From a virus, in the IMG/VR virus record IMGVR_UViG_3300024999_000034, positions 64,001-128,000 of that record: a stretch of 64,000 bases of DNA; one strand, written 5' to 3'. This document shows positions 2,883-63,135 of this stretch, one piece after another (position 1 is the stretch's first letter; every line of letters begins with the position of its first letter). Made by a program: the position numbers and the translations under genes. The notes under the pieces are model-generated. The model saw nothing but the letters and a program-made list of their open reading frames with translations, made no database searches and was not told the origin of the DNA.

Positions 2883-2986
2883 ACCTTGCAGAAGACAACC
2901 GCAATATAACAATAACAATCATGCGGTTGTAATGCACCAGCGCACGTTCCAAGTCGTGGCAGGATGCTAAAGAGGAGGTTAAATAT

Positions 2987-3172
2987 ATGCATATTAATTT
3001 AGTTCTAAATGATGAACAAACCAATTCAATTAAACAATCTTTATTTTCTGTATTATCTACTGGAGAATTAGCAGGTACTTTGTTTTCTAGAGTTATTACT
3101 GATAAATTCAATACCAATGAAAGCAAAGAACTAAAAACTGCATTAATTAATTTTTTAAGGTCTATTGAGTAA
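2987..3172 (+). CDS. Hypothetical protein
   Basis: GAGGAGG RBS. Confidence 0.65.
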   Translation: MHINLVLNDEQTNSIKQSLFSVLSTGELAGTLFSRVITDKFNTNESKELKTALINFLRSIE

Positions 3173-29212: not shown

Positions 29213-29968
29213 ATGTTAGAATTAAATAAAGTATATAATGAAGACTGTATTGGCGAAAGAGGTATGTGTCTAATTAAAGATAAGTCAATAGACATGATTT
29301 TATGTGATTTGCCGTATGGTGTCACTGCAAGGAATAAATGGGATTCAATTATACCATTTGATAAACTTTGGAAACAATATGAGTGTATAATTAAGGATAA
29401 TGGAGCAATAGTATTATTTGCTAAATCTCCATTCGACAAGTCTTTAGCAATGAGTAATATAAATTTGTATAAATATGAATGGATATGGTACAAAAACAAA
29501 GTAACAGGACATTTAAATTCTAAAAAGATGCCTATGCAAGCTCATGAAAACATATTAGTGTTTTATAAAAAACTTCCTACATATAATCCTCAAATGAGCG
29601 AAGGACATAAACCTATGAACTATGCTGTCAACCATCACGAAAATATTAGTACATATGGAGATGGAAAGAAAACAAAAAATCAAGCAGGAACCACAAAGCG
29701 GTATCCTAAAACCATTCTCGAATTCAACGTAGTAAATCAAGATAGTCCTGAAAGAATCCACCCATCGCAAAAACCAGTTGAATTATGTGAATGGCTAGTA
29801 AATACATACACAAATGAAAATGATTTAGTTTTGGATAATTGTATGGGAAGTTTTACTACCGCAATAGCATGTATTAACACAAATAGAAATTATATTGGAT
29901 TTGAATTAGATGATGGGTATTATGATTTAGGGAATAAAAGATTAGAAAGTTTGATATATGTAAAGTGA
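29213..29968 (+). CDS. Site-specific DNA methyltransferase (N4-C/N6-A, beta class)
   Basis: ILCDLPYG, HPSQKP, VLDNCMGSFTT, YIGFELD. Confidence 0.9.
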   Translation: MLELNKVYNEDCIGERGMCLIKDKSIDMILCDLPYGVTARNKWDSIIPFDKLWKQYECIIKDNGAIVLFAKSPFDKSLAMSNINLYKYEWIWYKNKVTGHLNSKKMPMQAHENILVFYKKLPTYNPQMSEGHKPMNYAVNHHENISTYGDGKKTKNQAGTTKRYPKTILEFNVVNQDSPERIHPSQKPVELCEWLVNTYTNENDLVLDNCMGSFTTAIACINTNRNYIGFELDDGYYDLGNKRLESLIYVK

Positions 29969-56900: not shown

Positions 56901-57007
56901 GGTAATTTGTATTGGTATTGTATAGTAATTTGTACGATACCAATATTCTATCAAATGAATGTCTGGTTTTATTTGGTATAAAATAAATAATAAGGGAGAG
57001 ATTATTA

Positions 57008-57547
57008 ATGAGAGATGTTAAATTCAGAGCATGGGCTGAACACACAATAGATAATCGATGGAATTATGCATGGAATAAATCTGAAGAAGTATTTTCAAAA
57101 ACTGAACCCTCAAAACATTCACAAGAATGGAGCGAGTGGTATGATAAAAAAGAAGATTATAGAAATGAATTGTTAATGGAATGGGATTCTCAATTTATAG
57201 TCGATAGATATGTAAAAGAAAAAGCTATGATTACAAATATTATGGTTAATGGAACAGTACAAAGGCCACATGGGTATGAGATTATCGATATTATGCAATT
57301 TTCAGGATTAAAAGATCAAAGCAATAATAAAAATGAAGTGTATGAAGGTGATATTGTTGAGGAAATTGGATGGCAAGGTGATTATTATGTAGTCGAATTT
57401 ATTGATTGTGCTTTTTATGCAATATCATTGAAGAGATACGTTCCAGCAGGAATACGTACAAGGTATGTTAAATTAGATGAATTGATGAATATTCAAGTTG
57501 TTGGAAATAAATATGAAAATATAGAATTATTGGAAGGAGATAAATAA
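57008..57547 (+). CDS. yopX: YopX-family protein with an internal insertion
   Basis: MRDVKFRAW, MQFSGLKD...EVYEGDIV, VVGNKYEN. Confidence 0.85.
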   Translation: MRDVKFRAWAEHTIDNRWNYAWNKSEEVFSKTEPSKHSQEWSEWYDKKEDYRNELLMEWDSQFIVDRYVKEKAMITNIMVNGTVQRPHGYEIIDIMQFSGLKDQSNNKNEVYEGDIVEEIGWQGDYYVVEFIDCAFYAISLKRYVPAGIRTRYVKLDELMNIQVVGNKYENIELLEGDK

Positions 57548-57548
57548 T

Positions 57549-57827
57549 ATGTTTATAGAAAAGGTAATCACTAAAACCATCTTTGATCCTGAAGTTTTTA
57601 AAATAGGAACAAAAATACATGCAAAATATCAATGTGCAATCAGTGACGATTATAAATATTGGGAATATGATTTTAATGGAATTGTTAAATCTTATGATGA
57701 GGACATTATATGGTTAGAAGATCCAGATGATAGAGATTACAATGTATTTTCTGATGAATCGCGTCCTAGACGATATAAAATTGAATTGCAGTTAGTTAAA
57801 ATGGGATTTTGGGTATTAGAGTTTTAA
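57549..57827 (+). CDS. Hypothetical protein
   Basis: ORF track. Confidence 0.6.
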   Translation: MFIEKVITKTIFDPEVFKIGTKIHAKYQCAISDDYKYWEYDFNGIVKSYDEDIIWLEDPDDRDYNVFSDESRPRRYKIELQLVKMGFWVLEF

Positions 57828-58016
57828 CTCCTTTCAAATCCATATTTCCTCGTACTTTAAGAACCATGAAACCATTATGTAACCCAATTCTTAATTTTAG
57901 AAATTATTAAAAAGAGGTGAATGCTTATAATAAATCATAAGTATTACAATAAATGGAATCTTAATATATAAAATAGTTAAGTATCAATAAATAAAATATA
58001 GAAAGAGGTTGATTAT

Positions 58017-58747
58017 ATGGAAGAAAAAGTAATAATTTTGCCAGAGAGAGAGAGAGTCTACAACTAAATAAAACGTATAATATGGATTGCACCAAAGGAC
58101 TAGAGCAAATGTATAAAGAAGGAATTGTAGCAAATTGTATTGTAACTGATCCTCCTTATGGAATAAACTTTAGCACAAATCATAGAAAGAAAAATACGTT
58201 AACAACACAAAAAGGCATTCTTAATGATAAAGACAATAATGACTTTCTAGAAAATATAATTGATTTATCATATAAGGTATTGAAAGACAATGCACATATT
58301 TATTGGTTTACTCGTTGGGATAAAGTACCTGAGCATTTAGTGTTGTTAAGGAAATATTATAATGTTAAAAATGCTTTAATATGGGTTAAAAATAATTGGT
58401 CGATGGGTGATTTAACTGGTGCATATGCAGGGCAATATGAAGTAATTTTGTTTGGTCAAAAAGGTAGAAAAGAACTAAATGAAATTGATGGTCGAAAAAG
58501 ACATACAGATATATTGAATTATAATAGAGTATCGGGTAAGGAGCAAATACATAGTCATCAAAAACCAATAGATTTATTACAGTTTTTGATCAAGAAGTCC
58601 ACTGTTGAAGGCGAAGTAATATTAGATCCATTTGCTGGTGCGAGGTCAACAGAGATAGCTTCTAAGTGCTGTGGTAGGCAATACATAGGATTTGAATTTG
58701 ATAAAGAGATATATGATTTAAGTTTGAGTAGATTAATTAATTTGTAA
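58017..58747 (+). pseudogene. DNA methyltransferase (N4-C/N6-A, beta class) out of frame at an (AG)7 tract
   Basis: RBS-led ATG at 58017 gives MEEKVIILPERERVYN*; the body frame reads SLQLNKTYNMDC, VTDPPY, HSHQKP, LDPFAG; (AG)6 or (AG)9 would fuse them. Confidence 0.75.
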
Positions 58748-58782
58748 TACATATAAACATAAAAATAATTATTATACACTAC

Positions 58783-58812
58783 TTGATATTTACCTATTGA
58801 GTGGTGTATAAT
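58783..58812 (+). promoter_or_regulatory. Promoter TTGATA-18-TATAAT
   Basis: Sequence inspection; A-rich UP-like tract upstream. Confidence 0.55.
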
Positions 58813-59044
58813 AGTATTAAGAAGTAAATCAAAGGAGTGAAGTAAATGAAAGTAAAAATCCTAAAAGATGGCGAAAATGACAGAATGGTTATATTAAACG
58901 TCTTAGATTGGAGTGAAGTTCAGGTTAGTGATTTGATAGGTAAAAAGATTGTTGATATAACTCTTGATAATAAATATGAGGAAACAACTTTGGAACTAGA
59001 ATAATCCCAAGAAATTATATTTTTAAAGGTAGGTGATAAATTAA

Positions 59045-61603
59045 ATGAACGGAGATAGAGAGTGTCCTCACTGCGGAGAAATGAGTTTATTCGAACAGGG
59101 TTTAAATCAATGGTTATGTGTAATTTGTGGTAGAGAGTTTGATGATGAATGGTTAGAAGGAGAAGAATAATATGGATTTAAACAAATTTAAACTAAACGA
59201 ACTGATTGAAGAAATAGAGTATCTGAAAGAAGCAGAGGAATTATTATTGCAAATATATACAAATGTTGGCGTATATAATCTAGAAGTTTTAGATAATAAA
59301 TTAGACTACCCACGACCATTATCTACGAGAATAAGAGATCATTTTAAATTTGACGATAGTGAATAAAATGTTGCTTTTAAACTATAAAATCAATTGAAAG
59401 GAAAGTGTAAAATGAGATATTTTGAAGTAATAATGAAAAGCGGAGAAAAGAATTATCTCTCATATGACGTTGTAGAAATTCAAAGAGAAGAAATATCGGA
59501 AATTATTCAAGAAATTGATAGGAATGATTTTTTAAGAGAAAAAGAAGGAATATGTGAAGAATTACTATGTCATTCATGCGAAGAAAATAAATGCAGTGTT
59601 ATTTAATACGAAGAAATATATTTAAATAAAAGGAGTGCAAAAGTAAATGAAGAAATTATGTGTTGTATGTGGTCAAGAAATAGACACAAAGGAACAGCCA
59701 TATTTTAAATTTGGCTCTAAATATATTTGTGATGATACTGTGGATGTAGGGTGTTGCACCACATTTTTGAGTTGGCATAGAAAGAATGAAGATAAAACTG
59801 AATAAAATGGCACTTTCCAAGTATTTATAAAATGAGGTGAATGAAATGGATAAGAAATATATATAGTAAAAGTAGTAGACGATAGTGATGAAACAATTTT
59901 AACATTACTTGATTTTGGAACAGTAAATTATTCATCAAAATTAATTAATGTTTGTAGTATTATTATGGATTCAAAAAACGTTAGTAAATTAAGAAAATGC
60001 AAATGCGTTTTGTCTGTTAGAGAAAGTAGATCAGGTAAGTGGTTGGATGGAATTAAAAAAGAAAGGGATTGAATATAATATGAAAATCAGTGAGGCAGAA
60101 TTTATCAGCAAATGCATGGAATCTAATGAATGTACTCTTGAAGAATTTCATGAATATTATGAAGTCTTTCCTTGTAATTGTGAATATGAAAACTGTGAAG
60201 GATGGAGGAATGAATTAAAAGAAGATGCAGTAAGGAAATTTTATGAAAATAGTAAAAAAGATCAAATCAAATGATGTTTTTAAAGGTATGAAAGGAGAGT
60301 AAAAATGTTTAAAGTTATGGAAAAATGTTATGTAGAACATTGTGTTGATGGTTCAATGGCAAAGCTAGTATATGGAATATTAGAAGATAGCTGCTAAAAA
60401 TTATGAGTCATATGGTAATGAGTAAAGGAGAGAAAATAAATGAAATTGATTAATATGAAATGCCTTTTCCATAAAAAACTTACAATACATGTTACTCATA
60501 ATGAATGTGACGCGATGAGTTGTTATGGTTGTAAATATTTGATAGATCAATATTCAAATCATGTAGAGCAAGAAGAAGAACATGATTCTGAACCTTGGAA
60601 TCCATTTGAAGATTAATTATGCTTTAAAATCATACATTGAAAGAAGTTTTTATAAATGGAAGAACCAGAACTAACTGAAGAAGTGTTAAAACGAATCACA
60701 AATAGAATTCCTTGGTTTTTCTATATCCTAGAGGGACGTATTAACGGTTTTGATCAAGATATTGAAGAAATAAGACAATTACATGGAGAAAACAATCATT
60801 GGGAAGATTTTACTAGAGGACAACATAATGCATTTAAAGAAGCATGGAGTTTGTTGTTAGGTGATTAACAGATTATTCTTGACTATACTTTGATTTGAAT
60901 ATAAACTTAATCAAAAGACTAGGAGTAATCATGAAAAGAAGCATAGAATGGCAAAACACACGTAATGCTAATTATATCAATATTCATAAAAGAGTATCTA
61001 ATGTTTCTCCAGGAATTGTAAGTAAATTAGGATACAATGAATCAGATAGGGCAATTATAGGATTTTCAGATGATGGACAATTTCTATACATTAAAAAATC
61101 AGACAATGGTTTGAAATTGTCTATCATCAATGAAAGAAGTTTTGGAAGAACATTTGCTTCAATTGCTCTTATTAAGAATTTTGGTGATATTATTGGTACT
61201 TATGAGTATGATAGAGTTGATAATGAAGGTGTAGTGGTGTTAAGGAAATTATAAGGAGGTAATTATGAAAAATTATAAAGAAATATTACTAAATACCCTA
61301 TCAGATGATAATCTTGATCTAGAATCAGGAATCCCATCACTTAATAAACCACTTTTAGATTTTACAAAAAATTATCTAGAATTACGATTCTCAAATAATC
61401 TAAAGCAATACAATAATGATGAATCAAAAGCATATGATTTATTTTCTGCTAAGAAAGCAATGGAATATTTTAATATTTATGTTGAGGAATTATTCTTTTT
61501 AACAAGAGACAAAACTGATGGGAATTATTATGAACGAAAATTTCTCAGACAATTAATTCATTTGTTAAATTTAACGATTTTAGAGGTTGAAAATGGTGAG
61601 TAA
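59045..61603 (+). other. Run of small hypothetical CDSs, including 59045-59170 (Zn ribbon), 59172-59366, about 59412-59606, 60080-60274, 60656-60868, about 60931-61254, 61265-61603
   Basis: ORF track and RBSs. Confidence 0.6.
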
Positions 61604-62238: not shown

Positions 62239-63135
62239 TTGACAAGAAGTGAATACCATCAATTATTATGGGAAAAATATCATAGAATAGAAAATAATAT
62301 TGTAGAAAGGAGGTGTACCTCTTGCGAAGAATGGCAACAAGAAAATGTAGAAAATTTTTATCTAAAGAATAAATCAAACCCAGAATTAGGATTTTTGCCA
62401 GAGTGCAAAGAATGTACTATAAAAAGAACCAATAAAAACAGAAGCGATAAATATGATGATTATTATAGAGATTACAACAAGCAAATTTATTTAAAAGATC
62501 CCGAAAAATTTAAAGAACGTGATAAAATTAACGTAAGTAATAAACCGGAACAATATAAAGAAAAGAAAAAGAAATGGAGACAAAACCATCCTGAAAAGTG
62601 CAGAGAATACTCTAAGTTACATAGAGTGCATGATATCACAGAAGCAGAATGGAGATCATGTTTAAGAGTGTTCGGCAATACTTGTGCTTATTGCGGATTA
62701 CCAATTGAAAAACACACATTTTACAGAAATGGCAAATACATAATTATGAACTTTCACAAAGAACATGTGGATGATGAAGGATATAATGATTTGAGAAACG
62801 CGGTTCCTGCTTGTCAACATTGTAATAGTAGTAAGCGTCAGTACTCAATTGAAGAATGGTATTTTAAACAAAAATTCTTTTCTATTGACAGATATATAAA
62901 AATACTTTGGTGGATCAACGAAGAGTATAAAGACTATATAGAGGATAAGCCGCCTTACAGAATTATTAGAAAGCAAAATGACGATAAGAAGAGTTTTCAT
63001 TGGCAATTGTGGATTGTTGATGAGTACAGAAATATGATAGAATATATACATATAGGTGACAAGAAAAAAGATATACAAAAATGGATTGAAGTTAATAAAG
63101 CAGAATTAGAAGAGGAATTTGAGTGGGAATTATAG
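62239..63135 (+). CDS. Zn-finger HNH endonuclease, paralogue 3
   Basis: RRCTSC/PECKEC; CAYCG...KEHVDDEGYNDLRNAVPACQHCN; shares the KPPYRI tail. Confidence 0.8.
   Translation: MTRSEYHQLLWEKYHRIENNIVERRCTSCEEWQQENVENFYLKNKSNPELGFLPECKECTIKRTNKNRSDKYDDYYRDYNKQIYLKDPEKFKERDKINVSNKPEQYKEKKKKWRQNHPEKCREYSKLHRVHDITEAEWRSCLRVFGNTCAYCGLPIEKHTFYRNGKYIIMNFHKEHVDDEGYNDLRNAVPACQHCNSSKRQYSIEEWYFKQKFFSIDRYIKILWWINEEYKDYIEDKPPYRIIRKQNDDKKSFHWQLWIVDEYRNMIEYIHIGDKKKDIQKWIEVNKAELEEEFEWEL

Follow-up and report, generated by a model that had tools for sequence, protein, structure and literature searches.

A dinucleotide repeat as a candidate contingency locus on an orphan DNA methyltransferase of a groundwater phage

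Introduction

What is the role of a microsatellite that separates the well-placed start codon of a phage DNA methyltransferase gene from the reading frame of its enzyme? The locus that raises this question lies in a 64,000-nt stretch of DNA (hereafter the window), bases 64001–128000 of a linear, 180,838-bp IMG/VR virus record with an estimated completeness of 85%. A preliminary description, made from the letters of the window, proposed that an (AG)7 simple-sequence repeat (SSR) switches the methyltransferase OFF and that the locus is a candidate phage phasevarion; it also allowed for a slip in sequencing. Here we analyze the anatomy of the locus, its reproducibility, the state of the tract in related phages and the N-terminus of the encoded enzyme, and weigh the readings that these data permit.

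Results and discussion

Anatomy of the candidate switch region

The anatomy of the locus can be read directly from the letters. Its features, with the paralogous gene found elsewhere in the window, are the following (window coordinates).

58000–58008, + strand: Shine-Dalgarno sequence AGAAAGAGG, 8 nt 5' of the ATG at 58017–58019
58017–58042, + strand: true start and leader codons (MEEKVIILP) of the predicted full-length methyltransferase
58043–58056, + strand: (AG)7 simple-sequence repeat, frame-setting, read as (Glu-Arg)n; codons 9–14 of the ORF from 58017
58055–58081, + strand: N-terminal segment SLQLNKTYN in the body frame, translated only with the tract in phase
58065–58067, + strand: frame-0 TAA stop, ending the 16-codon product of the present, predicted OFF state
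58082–58747, + strand: methyltransferase body from its first in-frame ATG (MDC...), 221 codons plus the stop at 58745–58747
58109–58111, + strand: internal ATG chosen by gene callers for this record, giving a 212-aa MYKEG... product (P0122)
58148–58159, + strand: catalytic motif IV, DPPY, placed by sequence, translation and alignment to 5HFJ
58625–58639, + strand: AdoMet-binding motif I region, DPFAG, placed by sequence, translation and alignment to 5HFJ
29213–29968, + strand: second, intact PF01555 methyltransferase, a paralogue without a repeat tract

As the preliminary description had it, the strong ribosome-binding site serves ATG 58017, whose frame closes at the TAA of 58065–58067 after translating as MEEKVIILPERERVYN. 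The distance from this ATG to the MDC codon of the body is 65 nt (2 mod 3), which puts the body in frame +2 relative to ATG 58017. The body frame is open back to 58013 and contains no ATG, GTG or TTG before 58082. Its stretch upstream of 58082 reads ...ERESLQLNKTYNMDC; within it, SLQLNKTYNMDC can be aligned to the N-terminal MLELNKVYNEDC of the paralogue (31% identity, E 1e-18), bearing out the likeness noted in the preliminary description. Also as described, no purine-rich Shine-Dalgarno sequence precedes ATG 58082; an AAAGGA lies 9 nt upstream of ATG 58109. Loss of one AG unit changes the 65-nt offset to 63 nt and gain of two units changes it to 69 nt, and either joins ATG 58017 to the body, so the claim that (AG)6 or (AG)9 in place of the (AG)7 tract, which occupies exactly 58043–58056, restores the frame is correct.

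Chance does not account for the tract: dinucleotide-preserving shuffles give an expectation of 0.03 (AG)6 matches in the window. The (AG)7 tract is the sole non-AT repeat of at least 5 units in the 180,838-bp genome, and the whole genome contains no homopolymer of at least 9.

We propose that the (AG)7 tract is probably a hypermutable, slipped-strand contingency locus, turning translation of a full-length orphan methyltransferase on and off. Slipped-strand mispairing during phage DNA replication would add or remove AG units. With 6, 9, 12 (and so on) units, a ribosome starting at ATG 58017 would pass through (Glu-Arg)n and go on to complete the full-length enzyme (ON); any other number would bring it to a stop 3–4 codons past the tract (OFF). 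The OFF state would yield at most a truncated protein, begun at ATG 58082 or 58109, that lacks the conserved N-terminal strand. By this rule the present genome is predicted to be OFF, one unit above ON.

Reproducibility of the tract and selection on the gene body

A simpler account would be that an assembly or sequencing error added an AG unit, or that the gene is a dead pseudogene in which a microsatellite arose by chance. Dinucleotide runs are prone to polymerase slippage during library preparation, and the record is a metagenome assembly. The (AG)7 tract nevertheless recurs in independent Logan contigs from three samples of one study: on one contig (15.6x) in the sample that is probably the source, on unitigs at ~1800x in a second sample and on a contig at 5.7x in a third. 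Reproduction of the identical allele in three samples excludes the sequencing slip that the preliminary description had allowed for. Uniformly in-frame reads had been named there as evidence against a switch; in no sample is the assembled sequence in frame. No indel variant is listed at the tract in any run, a result that does not imply homogeneity since the runs are represented by contigs, which drop rare variants.

Nor does the gene look dead. Among the four out-of-frame alleles of the window's own clade (the AG clade, described below), dN/dS is 0.04–0.15 at dS 0.14–0.78, indicating a methylase body that is under strong purifying selection and not decaying. Pure tracts, moreover, occupy one site in nine related alleles. 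We regard artefact and pseudogene as refuted, and the probability that we leave to them is negligible.

In the deep sample (run X3), the 40-nt unitig corresponding to 58017–58056, that is, leader plus (AG)7, has a depth of 3730, compared with ~1800 on both flanks. Two contigs of this run share the leader and tract, extend by 13 bases (at least 6.5 units) of further AG, and differ in their flanks. Because the flanks differ, these AG-extended contigs come from co-occurring relatives, as does the doubled depth of the 40-nt unitig, and do not represent demonstrated alleles of this strain. A single groundwater sample contains several related phages with this leader and tract.

Tract variation among related phages

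The DNA of relatives was taken from JGI metagenomes, and their proteins from a protein search and from look-ups of 90%-identity clusters. The window and its closest relatives form the AG clade, with 93–95% protein identity, 86–90% nucleotide identity across the gene and mosaic flanks. A sister clade carries an AC repeat at the same position. The tracts and their frame relations are the following.

Window, AG clade: (AG)7, out of frame
L083, AG clade: (AG)10, out of frame
L085, AG clade: AC(AG)9, i.e. 9+1 units, out of frame
L084, AG clade: (AG)25.5, out of frame
L087, AC sister clade: (AC)8, OFF
L089, AC sister clade: (AC)5, OFF
L091, AC sister clade: (CA)8.5, OFF
L090, AC sister clade: (CA)9.5, ON
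L107, AC sister clade: (CA)6.5, ON

The preliminary description had suggested comparing tract length across related phages, where an invariant length would have counted against a switch. The tract is polymorphic, with 7, 10, 9+1 and 25.5 AG units in one clade and 5 to 9.5 AC units in the other. The surroundings of the tract are conserved in almost all alleles: each of the nine relatives has a GAGG, GGAG or AGGAGG at the matching distance 5' of its MEEKV start, and 7 of the 9 alleles share identical letters over the first 17 nt of the leader (ATGGAAGAAAAAGTAAT), L087 and L107 having A at the last position. The occurrence of two repeat units, AG and AC, at one position suggests that selection acts on mutability itself and not on the peptide that the tract encodes.

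Protein sequences extend the comparison. The MEEKVI start opens the in-frame homologues P0003, P0133, P0134, P0156, P0157 and P0163. Homologues at 59–78% identity occur in a short form, which starts at MDC or further in, and in a long form, MEEKVITHTHTH-LELNxTYN-[MI]DC, in which the MEEKV start is as in the window and is followed by a Thr-His repeat (P0134 begins with MEEKVINSYTHTHTHT). Within one 90%-identity cluster, ON proteins (P0156, P0157 and P0163; 247–248 aa, MEEKVITHTHTH...) and OFF proteins (P0159–P0162; 218–227 aa) are found on 7 contigs each. The ON proteins P0003, P0133 and P0134 cluster with P0135 and P0136, which are called from MDC; P0131, P0132 and P0137, also called from MDC, match an allele typified by L003 that lost the tract (see below). 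In-frame and out-of-frame alleles of the AC sister clade thus coexist inside single 90%-identity protein clusters, and both states are natural ones there, the ON state being found in the MEEKVI-starting proteins as well as in L090 and L107.

The AG clade itself presents out-of-frame alleles. For all proteins at least 90% identical to the window's, the gene call begins at an internal Met (212 or 221 aa), and these 10 distinct sequences, on ~40 contigs, include no in-frame AG-clade allele. When 5.8 billion protein clusters were searched, the best matches likewise included none. Pattern scans of IMG/VR gave no match, with the window's own record excluded and with a first gap pattern that was too narrow for the AG clade.

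The locus thus shows several traits of a contingency locus: an SSR in the 5' coding region, a frame that flips with a change of unit number, a length that differs between close relatives and a gene that is under selection. The earlier claim that the AG repeat is an ON/OFF switch of the methyltransferase finds support in the tract polymorphism, in the ON and OFF alleles of the sister clade and in the purifying selection on the body, each observed directly among these sequences. Switching within a population, we infer, would be fast and reversible.

The methylase of a more distant clade (53–55% identity) offers a separate observation. L096 (positions 104–200) and L099 have an extra T (TATATATTTAATGG) compared with L097 (positions 861–950; TATATATTAATGG); it falls in the first 12 codons and frameshifts the N-terminus. 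Proteins of this clade (P0065, P0072, P0082, P0086) are called from an internal MQQMI.... Frameshifts at the 5' end seem to be recurrent in these phage methylases.

The enzyme and its N-terminus

The body matches PF01555 along almost the whole profile (positions 2–219 of 221; E 6.8e-30; 105.1 bits, cut-off 26.7). Motif IV lies near the N-terminus and AdoMet motif I near the C-terminus, the order of the β class, and we predict an orphan, stand-alone β-class N6/N4 DNA methyltransferase. The nearest solved structure is that of M1.HpyAVI from Helicobacter pylori (PDB 5HFJ, E 1e-15; also 5HEK), a β-class N6-adenine methyltransferase with the same motif order. The two enzymes are only distantly related, so the target sequence of M1.HpyAVI cannot be transferred to the phage enzyme. 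The M1.HpyAVI N-terminus, MIQIYHADA, aligns with phage NKTYNMDC, which places the natural start upstream of MDC. In a clade at 75–78% identity (P0003, P0004, P0131–P0141; L003 positions 3068–3079), motif IV is DSPY, not DPPY (ILTDSPYGINF), an unusual variant.

The 8 codons between the tract and MDC encode a motif, L-[QE]-[LI]-N-x-T-Y-N, that is kept in ON and OFF alleles. Changes in this segment are synonymous only (CTA/TTA, ACG/ACA/ACT, GAG/GAA), which argues that it is translated in the body frame. More than 100 homologues begin upstream of the motif, 5–20 residues before xDC; outside the repeat-bearing clade nearly all do so, with a few shorter calls in other clades. L092 and L093, without a tract, have a TTG start directly before LEINKTYN. 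In the predicted structure, which is mediocre as a whole (mean pLDDT 64) and was used for the N-terminal strand only, the KTY residues form a β-strand with local pLDDT 76–89. The conserved motif, the upstream starts of homologues, the M1.HpyAVI alignment and the modeled strand together argue that selection sees the full-length protein from 58017. A product begun at 58082 or 58109 lacks a conserved N-terminal element.

These features bear on the possibility that the OFF state is not off. The AG-clade enzyme might be made constitutively from ATG 58082, where ribosomes would re-initiate once they had translated the 16-codon upstream ORF, or from ATG 58109, with the tract and upstream ORF serving as a leader or dimmer. 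Such internal initiation would explain how the body can be under strong purifying selection when every AG-clade allele is out of frame, and the MDC ATG is conserved in the AG clade and in part of the AC clade. The relatives that lost the tract point the same way. In L003 (positions 2960–3003; likewise L086 and L098; 76% identity) the repeat and the MEEKV start are both gone: GGAG runs straight into an out-of-frame ATG (MILILN, then a stop), whereas the sequence in the body frame is DDINIKLNSTYNMDC and includes an ATT, in that frame, 5 nt after GGAG. The upstream ORF ends 14 nt before the MDC ATG in the window and in L003 alike. The 222-aa body of the L003 type is intact on several contigs although tract and MEEKV are missing, so translation may be able to begin at or near MDC; judged from these letters, the L003 type may be a locked allele that starts at the ATT or at the MDC ATG.

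Several observations argue against internal initiation as the normal mode in the AG clade. ATG 58082 has no Shine-Dalgarno sequence, and the MDC codon itself is ATA (Ile), not ATG, in L090 and L091. Synonymous changes in the 8 codons before MDC leave a family-wide motif intact, almost every homologue outside the SSR clade begins upstream of that motif, and the residues that would be lost form the modeled β-strand that matches the M1.HpyAVI N-terminus. We consider constitutive expression from an internal start unlikely.

One out-of-frame class per clade

The AG alleles with DNA have 7, 10, 10 and 25 units, all 1 mod 3, i.e. ON plus one; the three OFF alleles of the AC clade are all congruent to ON minus one unit, mod 3. 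The second out-of-frame class is absent from both clades (four AG alleles and three OFF AC alleles). If the alleles are independent, the chance of a single out-of-frame class per clade is ~1 in 32. Such a pattern is unexpected for free switching, though the sample is small; a directional bias in slippage could explain it.

It could also reflect programmed recoding. A 2-base slip of the ribosome, for which GAG and AGA re-pair perfectly, or gain or loss of AG by RNA polymerase would then supply a low, constitutive amount of full-length enzyme from tracts with n = 1 mod 3. Recoding would account for the one frame relation shared by four AG alleles that range from 7 to 25 units and, likewise, by the three OFF AC alleles, and for a conserved N-terminal segment and body in an AG clade that has no known ON allele. 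The two clades would, however, need opposite shifts (+2/−1 in one, +1/−2 in the other), and the AC clade has plainly in-frame alleles. The region has no classical slippery heptamer, and an Rfam search of window positions 57000–59500 returned no family. The frame statistic itself comes from a small sample in which L083 and L085 may share ancestry. To our knowledge, neither efficient 2-nt ribosomal slips nor elongation-phase transcriptional slippage on dinucleotide repeats is established in bacteria. We give recoding a low probability.

A classical −1 frameshift was rejected as a candidate, as there is no slippery heptamer and AGA and GAG do not re-pair at −1. Were the one-frame rule real, the tract might be a dual device, in which a 2-nt slip gives a low constitutive level of enzyme in the nominal OFF state and DNA slippage sets that level heritably. 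We think this combination very improbable, and we know of no programmed 2-nt recoding site on a microsatellite in bacteria or phages.

Possible benefit and comparison with known systems

A slipped-strand contingency locus, the reading that we favor, may serve to bet-hedge the methylation state of the phage, as the preliminary description supposed and by analogy with other systems. Methylation would shield a genome from classical restriction, and lack of methylation would shield it from modification-dependent (Type IV-like) defences. Were the phage temperate, the methylation of its lysogens would vary likewise.

The closest bacterial counterpart is M.MmyCI, a Type III mod of Mycoplasma mycoides subsp. 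capri, in which (AG)12 is OFF through a TAA just past the repeat and (AG)10, being in frame, gives an active enzyme (Algire et al. 2012, PMC3498834). At both loci (AG)n forms part of the coding sequence for a DNA adenine methyltransferase (predicted in the phage), with the same repeat unit and the same logic. [quoted passage not shown]

Among phages, the agt gene of T2 provides the nearest parallel. Reversible frameshifts in an agt homopolymer let subpopulations escape either TgvAB, a modification-dependent defence, or McrA/BC, which in that account is set against unmodified DNA (Gomez, Barrick and Waters, bioRxiv 10.1101/2025.10.21.683753). There too a slippage-prone repeat lies in a phage gene for a DNA-modifying enzyme, with the bet-hedging logic that we propose. 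The T2 repeats are A-homopolymers of 6–9 bp in a glucosyltransferase gene of a lytic coliphage and were measured at the bench; the methyltransferase locus has dinucleotide tracts of 7–25 units in uncultured phages, and its switching is deduced from natural alleles. Gomez et al. define contingency loci by a homopolymer SSR of at least 6 bp with an elevated, reversible frameshift rate; ours is a dinucleotide repeat and falls outside that wording, while the working principle is the same.

Other phage genes contain hypermutable repeats that create phenotypic subpopulations. Campylobacter Fletchervirus phages have polyG tracts in the genes for their receptor-binding proteins (Sorensen et al. 2021, Cell Rep 35:109214), and a methylase gene of Bordetella phage BPP-1 has been noted, without further study, to contain a polyG tract. 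As described in these sources, the tracts are homopolymers, and the Fletchervirus receptor-binding cases concern adsorption rather than DNA modification.

The label of candidate phasevarion that the preliminary description attached to the locus suits it less well, since the locus falls outside that class as defined. Phasevarions involve Type III mod and Type I hsd genes of Haemophilus, Neisseria, Moraxella, Streptococcus suis and others (PMC5909438, PMC7383803), and the likeness lies in the logic, length variation of an SSR in the 5' coding region switching a DNA methyltransferase ON and OFF. Membership of a Type III, Type I or Type IIG R-M system on a bacterial chromosome does not carry over: the gene is in a virus record and encodes a stand-alone PF01555 enzyme without res or hsd neighbours. 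Phasevarions are, further, defined by a methylation-dependent regulon in the bacterial cell, and mostly have tetra- or pentanucleotide repeats. 'Phasevarion' is probably not the best label; a closer description is 'phage contingency locus on an orphan DNA methyltransferase'.

The formal assignment of contingency loci to phages dates only from a 2025 preprint and is confined to laboratory coliphages and their short homopolymers (10.1101/2025.10.21.683753), and our literature search turned up no description of a phage methyltransferase switched by a dinucleotide repeat. Among natural alleles from groundwater and related JGI metagenomes, a long dinucleotide microsatellite is retained at one methyltransferase codon position across a diverged clade. 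The two repeat units, with in-frame and out-of-frame states, would constitute field evidence that phages toggle their own DNA modification by slipped-strand mutation. The leader, tract and enzyme form a simple, clonable system for measuring switching. Because gene callers begin the methylase at internal ATGs (58109, 212 aa; 58082, 221 aa), such switches are invisible in protein databases.

Genomic setting

The runs that hold the phage sequence are groundwater metagenomes. The 180,838-bp genome has a GC content of 28.8% and carries nearly all of its genes on the + strand. A tblastn search with one large ORF gave matches only in Firmicute phages, at less than 35% identity; megablast against a phage GenBank collection gave no match to the phage sequence, and a scan of GTDB genomes gave no close prophage. 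The 85%-complete record contains no match to the PF07508 recombinase. The neighbours of the methylase are small phage genes without known function, and no res or hsd genes are among them.

A promoter scan of the methylase region found sites no more numerous than in shuffled sequence. One promoter-like sequence, TTGATA-18-TATAAT (11/12 consensus), is located at 58783–58812, directly 3' of the methylase and 5' of a small ORF at 58846. Further downstream, an ORF at 62239–63135 (298 aa) matches phage endonuclease VII / HNH endonuclease families (phrog_1035, E 1.7e-17).
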